A stretch of 64,000 bases of DNA from Saprospiraceae bacterium (lineage in GTDB: Bacteria > Bacteroidota > Bacteroidia > Chitinophagales > Saprospiraceae): the NCBI GenBank assembly GCA_029262995.1, contig JAJCYH010000018.1, forward strand, positions 52,326-116,325. Reading direction: 5' to 3'. Shown here piece after piece: positions 14,035 to 20,763 of the stretch. Position 1 is the first letter of the stretch; each line of letters begins with the position of its first letter. The notes under the pieces were generated by a model. The model did no database searches, had not been told where the DNA came from, and saw nothing but the letters and a program-made list of their open reading frames with translations. A program made the translations under genes and the position numbers.

Positions 14035-15918
14035 ATGACTCAAGTAAGCTATACCGAAGATAACATCAAGTCCTTAGATTGGAAACAACATATACGATTA
14101 CGTCCCGGGATGTATATCGGTAAACTTGGTGATGGATCAACTACAGACGATGGAATATATGTACTTCTTAAAGAGGTAATCGACAATTGCATAGATGAAT
14201 ATGTAATGGGCCATGGCAAACAGATTATCATAGAAATAGAAGATGGAGTAGTTTCAATAAGGGATTTTGGAAGAGGCATCCCTCTGGGTAAATTAGTGGA
14301 TTGCGTATCAAAAATTAATACTGGAGGTAAATATGATTCCAAAGCGTTTAAAAAATCTGTAGGGCTAAATGGTGTAGGTACAAAAGCTGTTAATGCATTA
14401 TCCGACTACTTTAAAGTATCAGCTTTTAGAGAAGGTAAATGCAAGTTGGCAGAATTTAATCAAGGTGAGCTCATTTCCGAATCCAAAATAACAAAGTCTA
14501 AAGAAGACAATGGAACCTTAATTGAATTTCACCCTGATCCTGAAATTTTTAAAAAATTCAAATTTAGAGAAGAGTTCATTGCTGAAAGATTATGGGATTA
14601 TGCTTATTTGAATGCCGGTCTAAAAATTATATTTAACAAAAAGACCTATCATTCAAAAAACGGACTTTTAGATTTGCTTGAAAGCAAAACAGATCCAGAC
14701 AAATTAAGGTATCCAATTATCCATTTGAAATCAGAAGATATTGAATTCACCTTAACACATGGTGGACAATATGGTGAGGAATATTATTCTTTCGTCAATG
14801 GTCAGAACACTACCCATGGGGGAACACATTTACAGGCATTTAGAGAAGCAATCGTTAAGACGGTCCGTGATCATTACAATAAAAGTTTTGATTCACGTGA
14901 TATTCAGTCTGCTATCATAGGCGCAATATCTGTCAGAGTTGAAGAACCCGTTTTTGAAAGCCAAACAAAAACCAAATTAGGATCTCTTAAAATGTCACCA
15001 GATGGCATGACAGTAAGATCTTTCATAATGGATTTCGTAAAGGAAAATCTTGATAATTTCCTTCACAAAAATAAATCCCATGCAGATGCTCTTTTAAAAA
15101 GAATTCAACAATCTGAAAGAGAAAGAAAGGAAATTGCAGGCATCAAAAAATTAGCTAACCAAAGAGCTAAAAAAGCAAATATTCACAATAAGAAGCTCCG
15201 AGATTGCAAAGCACATTACAATGATAAAAAAGGCGATGAAACCGAGAAAAATGGTACTACCATATTTATTACCGAAGGTGATTCCGCAAGTGGATCAATT
15301 ACCAAGGCAAGAGATGTAAGAACCCAGGCTGTCTTTTCTCTTAGAGGTAAACCTCTAAACAGTTTTGGGCAAACCAAAAAAATCGTATATGAAAATGAAG
15401 AATTAAATCTTTTGCAACATGCCCTTAATATTGAAGATGGTCTTGAAGGTTTAAGATTTAATAAAGTAGTAATCGCAACTGATGCTGATGTTGATGGTAT
15501 GCATATCCGATTGCTATTACTGACTTTTTTCTTACAGTTTTTTCCAGACCTTGTAAGGGAAAAACACTTGTATATTCTTGAGACTCCGCTATTTAGAGTA
15601 AGAGATAAGCGAAAAACATTTTATTGTTATTCAGAACAAGAAAAACAGCAAGCCATTAAGGCTCTAAAGGGCAATGCAGAAATTACTCGATTTAAAGGGC
15701 TCGGAGAAATCTCACCTGACGAATTTGGTGGGTTCATAGGTGAAAAGATAAAACTTGAACCGGTAAGAATTAAAAACAACACTAAAATTACAGATCTCTT
15801 AAGCTATTATATGGGTAAAAACACCCTCGAAAGACAACATTTTATCATCGATAATCTAAAAGTTGAGCTTGATAGTCTTGAAAACAATGAAGTTATTGAG
15901 TTGGAAGGTGAGGGGTGA
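14035..15918 (+). CDS. parE: Type IIA DNA topoisomerase subunit B (topoisomerase IV ParE-like)
   Basis: GHKL ATPase N-terminus ([29 protein letters not shown]) and Toprim region ([22 protein letters not shown]). I favour ParE over GyrB from the 627-aa length and the N-terminal sequence, but this is not certain. The last codons and the stop lie in the heptamer array. Confidence 0.8.
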
Positions 15919-16230
15919 GGAGTGAGGACTGAAAACTGAGGACTGAGGGGTGAGGAGTGAGGACTGAGGACTGAGGACTGAAAACTGAGGAGTGAGGGGT
16001 GAGGACTGAGAAGTGAGGGGTGAGGACTGAGGAGTGAGGGGTGAGGACTGAGGAGTGAGGAGTGAGGAGTGAGGGGTGAGGAGTGAGGGGTGAGGACTGA
16101 AAACTGAGGAGTGAGGACTGAGGACTGAGGAGTGAGGGGTGAGGACTGAGGGGTGAGGAGTGAGGACTGAAAACTGAGGACTGAGGAGTGAGGGGTGAGG
16201 AGTGAGGGGTGAGGAGTGAGGAGTGAGGAG
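15909..16230. repeat. Tandem array of 46 degenerate heptanucleotide units, consensus TGAGGNN
   Basis: Counted by hand: 16 TGAGGAG, 14 TGAGGAC, 11 TGAGGGG, 4 TGAAAAC, 1 TGAGAAG. The 7-nt register is unbroken over 322 nt. Confidence 0.97.
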
Positions 16231-16315
16231 TAATAAAATAGTTTTACCAACACCATGATATCAAACTACCGTCTTAAGGAGTATAGCTTAATTTAAAATC
16301 ACAAACACTTCTAAG

Positions 16316-17602
16316 ATGAAAAATACAATCAAATACTATTTCCCAACTGTCCTTTTGTTTGCTTTTATCTGTATTAACTTGAGTTCATGCCTGAAAGATG
16401 AATGTACTGAAGAAAGAAACTTTCTAGAATATAGAAGTCTCTTTGTCAAAGCTGAAGAATTCAGAATCGATCCTAGCTTTGAAAGCAGCAAGGTTCTGAA
16501 AAATACAGGAAAAATATACTTTTATCAGGATTACATATTCATTAATGAAAGAAATGAAGGCATACATATCATTGACAACTCTAACCCTCTACAACCTGAC
16601 AACATTGGATTTATCAATATCCCAGGAAATGTCGATATAGCCATTAAGGGAACAACATTATACGCTGACAACTACGCCGATCTTTTAACAATTGACATTA
16701 GTAATTTCCAACAACCAACACTTCTTTGCAGAGACGAAGATGTTTTCAGCAGTTACTGGATTGATCCACAAAGAGGCTATTATGTAGGTGTAGAAGCTAC
16801 GGGAAGAACCATGACGCTAGATTGTTCAGATCCGAACTTTGGAGACAATACATTTAATCGAAATGGGTTCATTCTTTTTAATGAAGATGCTAACATTTCA
16901 ACAGGAGCACCGACTGCATTAAACAATAACGGAAGTACCGGAGTAGGAGGATCATTTGCGCGATTTACCATTAGAAATAACTTTTTGTATGTCATCAACC
17001 AGCAAGAACTTATTCCTTACGATGTATCAGGTAGTAATTGTCCTGATAGAGGAGAAATCACTTATGTAAGTTGGGGAATTGAAACACTTTTCCCTTATAA
17101 ACAATATCTATTTATTGGCGCTAACAATGGCATGTATATCTATGATGCTACAGTACCATCTCAACCACAATATGTATCAGAATTTAGACATGCCAATTCT
17201 TGTGATCCTGTATTTGTACAAGATGATATTGCCTATGTAACCTTAAGAAATGGAACCAATTGCCAGAACTTTATCAATGAGCTCAATATCTTAGATGTCT
17301 CAGATATACGCTCTCCTGAATTGATTAAATCCTATGATATGGAACATCCTCATGGGTTATCAGTAAGTGGAAATAAACTATATCTATGTGAGGGAGCTTA
17401 TGGCCTAAAAGTATTTGAAACCGATGATCTTAAAAATATTGATGATCATAAAATAGACCACATTAAAAACATTCATGCATACGATGCTATTTCTCTTAGT
17501 TTAGAACATCTGTTAGTTATTGGTAAAGATGGTCTATATCAATATGATACAAGCAATCCTTCTAATCTATCAGAAATGAGTTTTATAAGCGTAGAAAAAT
17601 AA
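16316..17602 (+). CDS. Lipoprotein with LVIVD-type beta-propeller repeats
   Basis: Lipobox (INLSSC). Recurring segments GIHIIDNSNPLQP, LLTIDISNFQQP, LNILDVSDIRSPE and GLKVFETDDL resemble LVIVD repeats. Confidence 0.55.
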   Translation: MKNTIKYYFPTVLLFAFICINLSSCLKDECTEERNFLEYRSLFVKAEEFRIDPSFESSKVLKNTGKIYFYQDYIFINERNEGIHIIDNSNPLQPDNIGFINIPGNVDIAIKGTTLYADNYADLLTIDISNFQQPTLLCRDEDVFSSYWIDPQRGYYVGVEATGRTMTLDCSDPNFGDNTFNRNGFILFNEDANISTGAPTALNNNGSTGVGGSFARFTIRNNFLYVINQQELIPYDVSGSNCPDRGEITYVSWGIETLFPYKQYLFIGANNGMYIYDATVPSQPQYVSEFRHANSCDPVFVQDDIAYVTLRNGTNCQNFINELNILDVSDIRSPELIKSYDMEHPHGLSVSGNKLYLCEGAYGLKVFETDDLKNIDDHKIDHIKNIHAYDAISLSLEHLLVIGKDGLYQYDTSNPSNLSEMSFISVEK

Positions 17603-17608
17603 ATTAAG

Positions 17609-18382
17609 ATGAAAACATTAGCGCATATAAAAGTATTGACATTTTTGCTGGTCTTATTTTCAGTAGGACAACTATCCGCACAGTCAGAGCAAGTCCCTGA
17701 TAACAGGATGGCGATCATCCATCTTAAAAATGGAAACCTTGTAGAAGGAGAAATCATCGATTGGAATTTTGGAGAGTCAATTACAATAAAATTTCCTTGG
17801 GGAGCAACGACTAAATTTCAACAGTATGAAATTAAAAAGATTACGCAAAAGTCTGCCAAAGCAAATTTGCAAGCACCATATAGCTTCAAAGAAAATGGCA
17901 TTTACTATAACGTAAGAACTCACATCATTGCCGGTAATGATGGACAAAGAGCAAATGGTGTGTTTGGCACTGGAGTATCTCTGTCAGCAGGTCATCGATT
18001 CAATAGATGGTTCAGCCTAGGCGGAGGAATAGGATATGATCGTTTTATATGGGAGTCAGGTGAAAACCTGATCCCCATTTTCGCAGAAGTCACTGGATTT
18101 TTTAATCCAAAAAATACTTCTTTGTTTTATAACTTACAGAGTGGGTATTCTTTTGCAAGTACTGATGAGCAATATTTATTGATTGAAGCCAAAGGAGGGT
18201 TTATGGTTTATCCCAATATTGGTATCCGATGGGGCCATGAATCAACAAGCTTTTTAGTAAGCTTTGGTTATAAATTTCAAAATGCCGAATTTACTTATGC
18301 TAATCCATGGAATTTTGGAGAAACTTCTAGGCATGATATTTTGTATAAACGTATGACTTTAGGATTTGGAGTCACTTTGTAA
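17609..18382 (+). CDS. Hypothetical secreted protein, probable small outer-membrane beta-barrel with an N-terminal globular domain
   Basis: Signal peptide ending LSAQ. The C-terminal half has alternating aromatic/Gly-rich beta-strand-like sequence. Confidence 0.4.
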   Translation: MKTLAHIKVLTFLLVLFSVGQLSAQSEQVPDNRMAIIHLKNGNLVEGEIIDWNFGESITIKFPWGATTKFQQYEIKKITQKSAKANLQAPYSFKENGIYYNVRTHIIAGNDGQRANGVFGTGVSLSAGHRFNRWFSLGGGIGYDRFIWESGENLIPIFAEVTGFFNPKNTSLFYNLQSGYSFASTDEQYLLIEAKGGFMVYPNIGIRWGHESTSFLVSFGYKFQNAEFTYANPWNFGETSRHDILYKRMTLGFGVTL

Positions 18383-18390
18383 AGAAAAAA

Positions 18391-18921
18391 ATGAGATTTT
18401 TAATTTTAATTAATACAGTTTCAATTCTACTAACTTTATCCTCATGTGCTAAAGAAGAAACCAAAGCATGCCAGGAATTGGTGATTGTCTCCGACTGGAA
18501 CACCGAAAACTTTAAGTCAGAATATTATATTCAATTTCCTGAACAATATGAAGGATTTGGAATGGCAGGGTTTGAAGGTAATTTGTTCTCCAAATTTAAA
18601 GCAGACAGCTCTGCCCTATTCAAGTACTTTTATTGCGGCCCATTATTCTGTGAAGATTTTGGCGGAAGCCTAGAAAGTCCTCAACCTGATCAATTGTTAA
18701 TTGTAAATCAACAAAATCAATATTTTACTCTTGATCAAAAGCAAACATTCTGTTACAACAATGCGGAAGTTGGAATACTATATTATAATGACGTTCAAAG
18801 AATACAAGGTAGGTACTTTATGAAGATTAACCAAGAGTTTCTAGAAGCTTTAAGCGTTGAATTTGATGAATCAAATCGTGACGAAGTTTTTGCAATAATT
18901 GCTTCAATACACAAAATATAA
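18391..18921 (+). CDS. Hypothetical lipoprotein
   Basis: Lipobox LTLSSC. I recognise no family. Confidence 0.4.
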   Translation: MRFLILINTVSILLTLSSCAKEETKACQELVIVSDWNTENFKSEYYIQFPEQYEGFGMAGFEGNLFSKFKADSSALFKYFYCGPLFCEDFGGSLESPQPDQLLIVNQQNQYFTLDQKQTFCYNNAEVGILYYNDVQRIQGRYFMKINQEFLEALSVEFDESNRDEVFAIIASIHKI

Positions 18922-18950
18922 TTGATTGAAAGTTGTCTGATCAGACATAT

Positions 18951-19505
18951 ATGAAAAATGAATGGCATGAGATAAGAATTCGATGTGCCAAAAACGAAAG
19001 GAAAGCACAAGAGCTGCTTTACCGTCATTTTTTTCCTGTAATGGAAAGAATGGTACTTCGCTTTACAAACGATGAAGATCAGATCATTGATATACTAAAT
19101 AATGCATTCTTGAAAGTCTTTAAGAAGATAGAATCTTTTCAAGGGAATGGTTCTTTTGAAGGTTGGATAAGAAAGATCGTTTATCACTCTATTAGTGATT
19201 ATTTCAGAAGTCGTCAAAAGGATTTGAAATTTTTGATTTACGAAAAGGAATTTTCCAAAGAACCCACACAAGCAGAAGATCAAAAGTTATACTATCAAGA
19301 TCTAATGAAGCTTATAAATAATCTGCCTGAAATGCATATGCAAGTTTTTCACTTATATGCAATTGAAGGTTATAACAATAAAGAAATAAGTGTCAAATTG
19401 AACATCAATCACAACACATGTAGATGGTATTTGGCAGAGGCAAGAAAATTACTCCAAGTAGAGTACAATAAATATTACTTAAAAGATTTTAATGAAACAG
19501 CCTAA
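18951..19505 (+). CDS. RNA polymerase ECF-type sigma-70 factor
   Basis: Region 2 (ILNNAFLKVFKKIESFQGNGSFEGWIRKIVYHSISDYFR) and region 4 (MQVFHLYAIEGYNNKEISVKLNINHNTCRWYLAEARKLL). The track ORF starts at a TTG at 18933. I prefer the ATG at 18951 because 18934..18947 is a perfect palindrome. Confidence 0.85.
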   Translation: MKNEWHEIRIRCAKNERKAQELLYRHFFPVMERMVLRFTNDEDQIIDILNNAFLKVFKKIESFQGNGSFEGWIRKIVYHSISDYFRSRQKDLKFLIYEKEFSKEPTQAEDQKLYYQDLMKLINNLPEMHMQVFHLYAIEGYNNKEISVKLNINHNTCRWYLAEARKLLQVEYNKYYLKDFNETA

Positions 19506-20763
19506 CGCAACCTACAGCAGAACAGATCGAGGATGGCAAAATATGGAAGCCATGCTCGAAAAAGAAATGCCGCCTAAGAAAAGAAGGTACTTGATAATTA
19601 TTTGGCTTCTAGCGGGTATTGCTATTTTATGGTCTACTAATTTCTTTATCCAGCCTATCAATGATGAGCATCTTGCGGATTCAACGCAAAGCATAATTAG
19701 TGAAAACCAATCACCTATCACTTTAGCGGAACATGACAATGTAGAAGTGGGAATGGATAAAAGAACCGTTACGACAGCATTGATTAACGAATCAAAAATT
19801 GAAGGTAACATTTCTCCATCCGTTAGTAACTCTAATTCCACAATAAACAAGTCGATAATAAACATCAATGATAAACAAGCAATTAAATCTTCTCAATATG
19901 AATCAATAGTTGAAAAAAATGAAATATCAAGGAATACTGAGAGTAAAAATAAATTTATAGTGCTTAACGCAAAAAAGTATAATAATACATCATCAAATAC
20001 CTCAACTAATACGCCTATAATTTACCAAGCTGAGGCAAAGGATAATATTAATGAACTGCCTTTGATCAACAAACGTGAATTTAACTTGATTTACAATGAA
20101 TATTTACCAGCTATTTCGATAGCGTTAGCCGAAAGCCATATCAGAGTTGAAGATTCGTTTGATACGGGTATTCACATTGGTGCTCTGATTGGAGGAGAAT
20201 ATCTTATCGACTTTAAGTCACCTGGAGTTATGGGGGGAGTTATTATCGAAAAACCAATTAGTAAATCACTGTCGATTGGATCGCAGTTAGCCTATTCAAT
20301 TAATAAAAGAACCATAACAGATGAAGATGGTTTATTAAATCAGGATGTAGATATACCAACGGTAGAAGATACTAATACTGGAACATTATCGACAATCGAA
20401 TCCATTTCAGTATTGAAATCCAGTACCGGAAATCTAAATGCATGGATGACCAATCTGTATGCTAAATATAAATTCAATAAGGGGTTATCATTAAAGTTAA
20501 GTGTAGGATTTGACTATTATCTTGATCATCTGAGATTGATCAATGAAAGCTTTAATGAAATAAATTTAAGTTCAGAAAATCTTTATCAGATCGAAAAAGG
20601 AAATAAAATTATTCCTATAACATCATTAGGCCTAGAATACAATATACATAAAGGCATTTCAGTATTTGCAGAATATAGAGTTGCTTTAGAAGATTACTAT
20701 ACCTTCGAATTAGAAAAGATAAACACAACAAAAGCATCATTAGGTTTAACTTTTAGTTTATAA
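19492..20763 (+). CDS. Membrane protein coupled to the ECF sigma factor (anti-sigma-like N-terminus, Asn/Ser-rich linker, beta-barrel-like C-terminus)
   Basis: Overlaps the sigma gene by 14 nt. It has one TM helix (YLIIIWLLAGIAILWSTNFFI). The C-terminal 200 aa or so look like an outer-membrane beta-barrel (ends SLGLTFSL). Confidence 0.45.
   Translation: MKQPNATYSRTDRGWQNMEAMLEKEMPPKKRRYLIIIWLLAGIAILWSTNFFIQPINDEHLADSTQSIISENQSPITLAEHDNVEVGMDKRTVTTALINESKIEGNISPSVSNSNSTINKSIININDKQAIKSSQYESIVEKNEISRNTESKNKFIVLNAKKYNNTSSNTSTNTPIIYQAEAKDNINELPLINKREFNLIYNEYLPAISIALAESHIRVEDSFDTGIHIGALIGGEYLIDFKSPGVMGGVIIEKPISKSLSIGSQLAYSINKRTITDEDGLLNQDVDIPTVEDTNTGTLSTIESISVLKSSTGNLNAWMTNLYAKYKFNKGLSLKLSVGFDYYLDHLRLINESFNEINLSSENLYQIEKGNKIIPITSLGLEYNIHKGISVFAEYRVALEDYYTFELEKINTTKASLGLTFSL

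Follow-up and report, generated by a model that had tools for sequence, protein, structure and literature searches.

Heptanucleotide arrays in bacteria

Heptamers are the most over-represented class of bacterial long simple sequence repeats (LSSRs), and polymerase slippage over a contact of about 7 nt has been proposed as their cause (Mrazek 2007, in so far as it is quoted in PMC4679880 and PMC4692102). LSSR heptamer arrays are intergenic, since 7 is not divisible by 3. In Bacteroidetes, mixed heptamer arrays of up to 43 copies were described in Gramella, Aequorivita and Elizabethkingia; they are intergenic and interrupt contigs, and close relatives that share the gene neighbourhood lack them (MacGregor 2015, PMC4679880). 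In Xanthomonas and Nostoc, G-rich heptamers (GGGNATC and GGGGA(C/T)T) lie just past sense-strand stop codons and are mostly transcribed, but a regulatory role could not be demonstrated (Rehm 2015, PMC4692102). Here we describe an array of 46 TGAGGNN-type units at the 3' end of parE, in a 64,000-nt stretch of a Saprospiraceae bacterium (contig JAJCYH010000018.1; hereafter the window). Coordinates are window positions, and L-numbers are loci or contigs of other genomes used for comparison. The array (15909-16230) is a heptanucleotide LSSR of the kind represented by the 43-copy arrays of Bacteroidetes (PMC4679880), and is similar to the short tandemly repeated repetitive (STRR) sequences of cyanobacteria. 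Among what is new is its position: it takes the exact place of the segment that in relatives holds a TonB-like receptor/histidine-kinase/LytTR module, or its remnant.

STRR sequences were reportedly described in heterocystous cyanobacteria by Mazel et al. in 1990 (cited in PMC4692102). They occur as many dispersed copies per genome, with consensus units CCCCAGT, TTGGTCA and CAACAGT. The first-pass annotation of this DNA compared the array with them, and the analogy holds as far as both are tandem heptanucleotide arrays in non-coding DNA. The window, however, belongs to another phylum, has one array in 64 kb and contains none of the three consensus units. The dispersion of STRR sequences is found neither within the window nor in the roughly 143 kb of other clade DNA, where no other real heptamer array was present outside the gap between parE and the downstream LVIVD gene. 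The same annotation knew of no description of such arrays in Bacteroidota; the Gramella, Aequorivita and Elizabethkingia arrays provide one (PMC4679880).

With LSSRs in general the array shares head-to-tail heptamers beyond chance length, a sporadic and lineage-specific distribution, and slippage as the proposed origin. It differs in that 46 units lie at the long end of the range and the host window is not otherwise rich in heptamers. Among the TAACTGA and mixed heptamer arrays described from Beggiatoaceae, Cyanobacteria and Bacteroidetes (PMC4679880), those of Bacteroidetes are also long, mixed and intergenic, with contig breaks within, and 18 of the 46 units (TGAGGAC and TGAAAAC) share the ACTGA core of TAACTGA, reading GGACTGA and AAACTGA in another register. 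However, there is no TAACTGA unit in the window, the other 28 units end in G without ACTGA, and the array overlaps a stop codon. The BOGUAY pattern, in which forward repeats end a few nt before a start codon, is not matched either: 85 nt separate the array from the next ATG. Nothing specific on TGAGGAG/CTCCTCA repeats was found in the literature, and TGAGGAC-type arrays are not in the MacGregor 2015 supplement.

Structure of the array and the end of parE

The array occupies 322 nt of the + strand, that is 46 units of 7 nt with the form TGA-R-R-R-S, without indels and in perfect register by direct count. There are 16 TGAGGAG, 14 TGAGGAC, 11 TGAGGGG, 4 TGAAAAC and 1 TGAGAAG units. TGA is constant in all of them, and changes are found only at positions 4-7 (G or A at 4-6, G or C at 7). 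Tandem Repeats Finder (TRF) reported 15908-16231 with period 7, 46.3 copies, 0% indels and a score of 382, while all remaining tandem repeats of the window score 50 or less. The array thus has the head-to-tail units of 1-11 nt and the length beyond chance by which LSSRs are defined. Outside it, a TGAGGNNTGAGG dimer is absent from both strands of the window. The GC content is 58%, against 35% for the window, with a GC skew of +0.81 and 80% purines; AGGAG occurs 16 times, GAGG 41 times and GGA 30 times. The skew is uninformative about the replication strand, as it tracks gene orientation. Each + strand frame contains 15-16 stops across the array and each - strand frame none, because TGA in every unit closes all frames of the + strand and leaves all frames of the - strand open. 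Unit count, register, tally and stop pattern reproduce exactly the anatomy first reported.

Five unit types are present, and only one of them is a singleton. The longest exact repeat within the array, detected by k-mer comparison, is a 40-nt block (5.7 units) found on the + strand at 15909-15948 and again at 16147-16186, 34 units apart. TGAGGAC precedes TGAAAAC in every instance (p=0.006). The mosaic has no clean higher-order period, as had been noticed before; the block duplication is seen besides. Together, block duplications and the near absence of private variants indicate that turnover outpaces point mutation, and the order of the units points to multi-unit duplication and homogenisation.

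The array begins inside parE (14035-15918, + strand), which encodes topoisomerase IV subunit B of 627 aa with the Pfam domains DNA_gyraseB, Toprim and HATPase_c. The final codons GGT GAG GGG TGA are made of GG (15907-15908) and units 1-2, the stop being the TGA of unit 2. The earlier attribution of these codons to units 1-2 is therefore right, with GG placed ahead of unit 1. ParE ends here in ...EVIELEGEG, whereas its closest relatives end in ...EVIELE (624 aa). Its homologues are named Saprospiraceae, Chitinophagia or Bacteroidota, and the nearest is 87% identical.

Authenticity of the array

The array is real, and its length of 46 units is that of the assembly. Every array k-mer of at least 41 nt is unique, so an ordinary assembler is able to resolve it. 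A separate Logan assembly (k=31, SRR15505516) has an identical parE and the same first units, and its contig L001 terminates at the final base of the first 40-nt block (15948). This break is expected, since a k=31 graph must branch at the end of a 40-nt repeat. The gene order from parE to LVIVD is kept in the relatives L122, L165, L166 and L168, which shows that the join is not chimeric.

That the array is an assembly artefact, or else a true - strand gene for a repeat protein, is hardly credible. Short-read contigs do break within the array, but the Logan break falls exactly at the forced branch point, the k-mers are unique from 41 nt and the flanking gene order is conserved on both sides. 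On the - strand there is an open reading frame (ORF) of 149 aa (15807-16256) with an LLTPHSS-type period of 7 aa, antisense to the array and to the 3' end of parE. It had been considered artefactual, and this was borne out: the ORF has no Pfam match, its database 'homologues' are all repeat-derived ORFs and the three - strand frames are equally open. A search with this ORF returned 222 such repeat-derived 'proteins', several of them sharing single Mb-size contigs. There is a practical warning here, as arrays of this type yield spurious repeat proteins and break short-read contigs.

The gap between parE and LVIVD in related genomes

In L127 and L169/L170, parE is followed by CarboxypepD_reg (TonB-receptor-like), His_kinase and RR-LytTR genes (L127:8007-12251 and L169:4975-7875) and then by the LVIVD operon. 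In L122, parE ends with TAA and is followed by about 200 nt, a 66-aa LytTR remnant (L122:8079-8279) and LVIVD. The window, L165, L166 and L168 lack the module altogether. Across these lineages, the TonB-like/HK/LytTR module forms a stepwise gene-loss series.

Homology between the window and L122 stops at GAA (15906), the last ancestral parE codon, and restarts at AATAAAAT (16232). The resumption point (16232-16246, + strand) consists of AATAAAAT, which corresponds to the LytTR stop-codon region of L122 and L127, followed by TAGTTTTA. The GG and the 46 units replace exactly the stretch between the parE stop and the LytTR stop, 407 nt long in L122.

The same gap holds other arrays in other lineages. 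In L165 a three-unit array, TGAGAAC TGAGAAC TGAGAGT, opens with the TGA that stops parE. In L168 the entire spacer is composed of the parE TAA, ATAGA, (ATTCAGG)x8.7, ATAAA and a promoter motif that is discussed below. The gap is array-free in L122 and in L166/L167. ParE of the window is 85.8% identical to that of L165 and 84% to that of L168, while L165 and L168 are 91.5% identical to each other. One site thus carries arrays of 3, 8.7 or 46 units with different motifs, or none, in lineages with ParE 84-91% identical. No heptamer array was found in any other window intergenic gap of at least 240 nt. As motif and length differ between lineages, arrays at the parE-LVIVD gap either turn over fast or arose independently at a permissive or favoured site. 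The copy-number lability that had been anticipated is to be expected, and receives indirect support from the 3, 8.7 and 46 units found across lineages, with the reservation that their motifs differ.

The gap can be regarded as a natural series, with intact ancestral genes, a pseudogene remnant, no array, and arrays of 3, 8.7 and 46 units. Such a series could be used to gauge rates of array birth and turnover, and effects on 3'-end formation or promoter insulation.

A structured intergenic element was observed in L165 (L165:6305-6614; contig coverage 3x according to its name). It begins at the parE stop, and an inverted heptamer arm of 21 nt, 95% complementary, lies 188 nt downstream, with two GAATCCT units after it. 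Between the arms there are three ACTGACGA...TGTCAG hairpins, and the RNA is predicted to fold with a minimum free energy (MFE) of -78.8 kcal/mol (z = -4.8). This element may serve as a terminator or represent a miniature inverted-repeat transposable element (MITE).

Origin of the array

We consider it probable that the array is a slippage-driven heptanucleotide repeat with fast turnover, sitting in a locally permissive hot spot and affecting its neighbours only incidentally. We infer the slippage mechanism, the neutrality and the following order of events. The array would have started as a short seed at the stop codon of parE and grown by replication slippage and unequal recombination, in steps of one to several units, within an intergenic gap relieved of constraint after loss of the TonB-like receptor/histidine-kinase/LytTR module. 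A deletion with one endpoint inside the array would have fused it with GAA, the last ancestral codon of parE. The fusion would be tolerated, because TGA in each unit closes all three sense frames, and ParE would always stop after G-E-x at any copy number. Effects on the neighbours would be incidental and not evolved: a stop codon and three extra residues supplied to parE, and 322 bp of G-rich, C-poor DNA, open only in antisense, placed between parE and the promoter of the operon. Should it be no more than neutral slippage DNA, the array is a well-documented but ordinary example.

Several observations weigh against this explanation. Identical units are adjacent in 7 of 45 cases, somewhat below expectation (p=0.06), and units bearing GGGG are never neighbours (p=0.046); single-unit slippage predicts otherwise in both respects. 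Neutral slippage alone is insufficient to account for arrays in three lineages at one gap when the other large gaps of the window have none, and it leaves unexplained the 3:1 sense-strand bias of the array class past stops that is described below. The junction 21-mer TTATTGAGTTGGAAGGTGAGG has 0 matches in JGI metagenomes, and the sole other assembly breaks in the array.

Downstream operon and its predicted promoter

The operon downstream of the array (16316-20763, + strand) encodes an LVIVD beta-propeller protein (16316-17602), two products without assigned family (17609-18382 and 18391-18921), a sigma factor of the extracytoplasmic function (ECF) type (18933-19505) and an outer membrane protein (OMP) beta-barrel (19492-20763). 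The LVIVD, ECF and OMP assignments come from Pfam. L122, L165, L166 and L168 share this gene order. Exact-protein look-ups with two of the downstream genes matched no record.

The 85 nt between the array and the LVIVD ATG contain a conserved promoter-like motif of ECF type, CCAACA-N17-CGTCT (16247-16274, + strand), which lies 16 nt past the array end and about 40-42 nt before the ATG. In alignment A1, 5 lineages have invariant CCAACA and GTCT boxes ahead of the LVIVD ATG, always at the same spacing. CCAACA-N16-18-CGTCT has one match in the 64-kb window, against 0.04 expected. ECF promoters typically have an 'AAC' element at -35 and a 'CGT' element at -10. The motif is thus a putative promoter, and its conservation ahead of an operon that encodes a sigma factor suggests autoregulation by the operon's own ECF sigma. 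CCAACA-N17-(C)GTCT was seen upstream of the LVIVD operon in every lineage examined (the window, L122, L127, L165, L166 and L168).

According to the first-pass annotation, there was no terminator hairpin near the array and no TAnnTTTG box between the array and 16316, and the array was probably transcribed as a parE 3' untranslated region (UTR), as the leader of the LVIVD-ECF module, or both. No + strand intrinsic terminator is present in 15500-16600, in agreement with this. An exact copy of TAnnTTTG, the -7 box of Bacteroidota, is likewise missing between the array and 16316, but TAGTTTTA at 16239-16246 matches it at 7 of 8 positions. The leader role is unlikely, as the predicted promoter elements, whether TAGTTTTA or CCAACA/CGTCT, are all downstream of the array. 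The array would more likely belong to the parE 3' region or be an upstream spacer.

The position beside the operon recalls the phase-variation repeats of host-adapted pathogens, which are also hypermutable tandem repeats next to envelope-related genes. Copy number next to the -35 element could then tune or switch the LVIVD-ECF-OMP operon. The CCAACA -35-like box follows the array after 16 nt in the window and after 5 nt in L168, the operon encodes envelope-type proteins together with an ECF sigma factor, and array length differs greatly between lineages. However, the overlap of the window array with parE is confined to the final 10 nt of the gene, and the promoter-like motif is wholly downstream of the array. 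The array is neither between -35 and -10 nor in a 5' coding region, and changes in its length leave spacing and frame unchanged. Moreover, the operon has no known upstream activator site, and 46 units are far above the numbers in known promoter-proximal switches. A contingency repeat is thus very improbable here, and the slippage-driven repeat described above is preferred.

Heptamer arrays in other genomes

Species-representative genomes and viral contigs were scanned for four consecutive TGAGGNN units; the resulting figures are lower bounds and not quantitative. TGAGGNN arrays were found in at least 120 genome loci of many phyla, with up to 63 units among the matches listed. These matches include Planctomycetota, Acidobacteriota, Proteobacteria, Chloroflexota, Cyanobacteria and Bacteroidota, with Saprospiraceae among the last. 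Only two arrays in the fetched loci, of 63 and 47.6 units, are longer than 46 units. The same loci hold 126 further period-7 arrays of unrelated motifs, and period 7 accounts for 262 of 625 TRF rows. TGAGG is therefore ruled out as a special motif, and the loci are rich in heptamers in general and not in one motif.

Array placement was compared with random positions, using stop-to-stop frames as a proxy for genes. Arrays of the class lie within 30 nt past the stop of a long sense frame in 26% of cases, against 8% in antisense and 3% for random positions. TGAGGNN arrays are thus found across phyla, preferentially just past sense-strand stops. Two further ideas were discarded. Arrays seemed to supply stops beyond chance with a naive control (32% vs 3%), but with a fair control, in which the frame is open into the position, the values are 32% and 48% at random; what survives is the enrichment within 30 nt past stops. 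Seeding by a stop codon combined with a Shine-Dalgarno sequence (TGA-GGAG) finds no support either, as a start codon follows within 25 nt in 12% of arrays and 16% of random positions.

Recurrence at one site and the sense-strand bias hint at a functional role, as 3'-end element, insulator or tuner of the ECF promoter. In its broadest form, heptamer arrays would be a selected, motif-independent device for insulation or tuning without a terminator, repeatedly arising or being installed at particular gene boundaries, such as that between the essential housekeeping gene parE and the ECF-sigma-controlled envelope operon, which we regard as improbable. It is equally doubtful that they form a class of sense-oriented, cross-phylum 3'-end elements that owe a function to their TGA phasing, strand asymmetry and variable length.

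RNA structure and a possible role at the 3' end of parE

The proposed G-quadruplex potential is weak, and the only motifs present are of the two-tetrad GG-N5 type. No (G3+ N1-12)x3 G3+ motif occurs in the array, even with 12-nt loops, since no two GGGG units adjoin, and the array MFE structure from ViennaRNA contains no G-quadruplex although these were enabled. In the native order of units the fold reaches -43 kcal/mol, no better than shuffles of the unit order (-49.6 +/- 12, reaching -77 once GGGG units adjoin), and a G-quadruplex was rejected. For the antisense RNA, which is 52% C and 6% G, the predicted MFE is 0, and it would be wholly unstructured.

Known RNA families gave no lead. There was no Rfam match to the array at gathering score and no tRNA; the only hits are at chance level, to C/D-box models with E of 0.08 or more. 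Those to the archaeal sRNA models sR41 and sR2 (15924-15969 and 16086-16130, E = 0.09-0.6) are far under the gathering score and are noise from the CTGA/TGA periodicity. A sponge RNA of CsrA/Rsm type finds no match either: there are 30 GGA motifs, but no meaningful hairpins (MFE no better than shuffles) and no Rfam match. The anti-Shine-Dalgarno sequence of Bacteroidota ribosomes is sequestered, which makes the suggested anti-Shine-Dalgarno sponge implausible.

Another possibility is that the array acts as a functional 3'-end element or insulator, which would stand in for a hairpin terminator and separate parE from the operon under ECF control. It might do so as part of the parE 3' UTR, with the G-rich sense strand over a C-rich template giving rise to an R-loop, a weak G-quadruplex or polymerase pausing, or else through the C-rich, G-poor, unstructured antisense RNA as a Rho-loading site. 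The absence of an intrinsic terminator between parE and the operon is consistent with this, as is the composition of the antisense RNA. In L168 the array makes up nearly all the sequence from the parE stop to the promoter, and in L165 the inverted heptamer arms form a strong hairpin in the gap (z = -4.8). In addition, the placement of the class just past sense stops is similar to that of the mostly transcribed heptamers of Xanthomonas and Nostoc (PMC4692102), and the window array itself overlaps the parE stop in sense orientation. Those heptamers, however, carry a G3-4 tract in every unit and preferentially occur as four units, whereas GGGG is present in 11 of the 46 window units and never in adjacent ones, so that a canonical quadruplex motif does not arise. 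The ATTCAGG units of L168 are neither G-rich nor C-rich, so a mechanism based on composition is not common to the relatives, and L122 and L166 do without an array. Rehm et al. were unable to show a regulatory role for their repeats (PMC4692102). We therefore consider an insulator rather unlikely, and a slippage-driven repeat with incidental effects remains the preferred explanation.

Inverted heptamer arms and variation among arrays

A structured element similar to that of L165 was found in the gap between yidC and mnmE of a high-GC contig of 1.59 Mb (L128:4830-5700). A TGAGGAG array, broken up by TGAGGTCGTAGGAG 14-mers, comes first; the central element that follows spans about 380 nt, and some 45 inverted CTCCTCA/CCCCTCA units come last. 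There is no Rfam match. Of 120 repeat-derived ORFs, 26 contain the spurious translation of the central element (core LLRQKKVTKKKA), and these are from different contigs. The central element looks like a dispersed MITE-like or repetitive extragenic palindromic (REP)-like element with heptamer arrays as arms.

The window array could by analogy be the expanded remnant of one arm of such an element, inserted at the parE stop, with the centre and the other arm later lost. The L165 element begins at the parE stop with TGAGAAC units and has an inverted arm 188 nt away and three hairpins; L128 has the same architecture, and its recurring core is consistent with dispersal. However, the window array has no inverted partner, and a CCTCA..CCTCA dimer is found nowhere in the 64 kb. 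The L165 core motifs CTTACTGACGA and ACTGACGA are unmatched in the window, whose lineage is not sister to L165 according to the ParE identities (85.8%, against 91.5% between L165 and L168). The mobility of such elements is itself unproven. There is accordingly a slim chance that the array is such a remnant; growth by slippage from a short seed remains the probable origin.

Some variation was observed among TGAGGNN arrays elsewhere. The double change of GG to AA recurs within arrays of unrelated organisms (L021, L029, L038, L118 and L130-L164): TGAAACG turns up between TGAGGCG units, without single-step intermediates, and TGAAAAC between TGAGGAC units. The exact 20-mer TGAGGACTGAAAACTGAGGA is present in 35 JGI metagenome contigs with 38-69% GC. 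These contigs contain short arrays that mix TGAGGAC, TGAAAAC, TGAGAAC and TGAAGAC, and occasionally TGATAAC. The latter, which is TAACTGA in another register, stands alongside TGAGGAC and TGAAAAC in the metagenome contigs L158 and L145. Among the matches listed, four consecutive TGAGGNN units also occur in IMG/VR viral contigs (L171-L250), several of which, such as L178, have multiple arrays on both strands. Finally, in L129 (4070-4370), between rplL and an ORF of 1062 aa without Pfam match, (CGAGAAR)n is directly followed by its near reverse complement (CTCACTC/CTCGCTT)n, and the paired heptamer arrays make a long hairpin.

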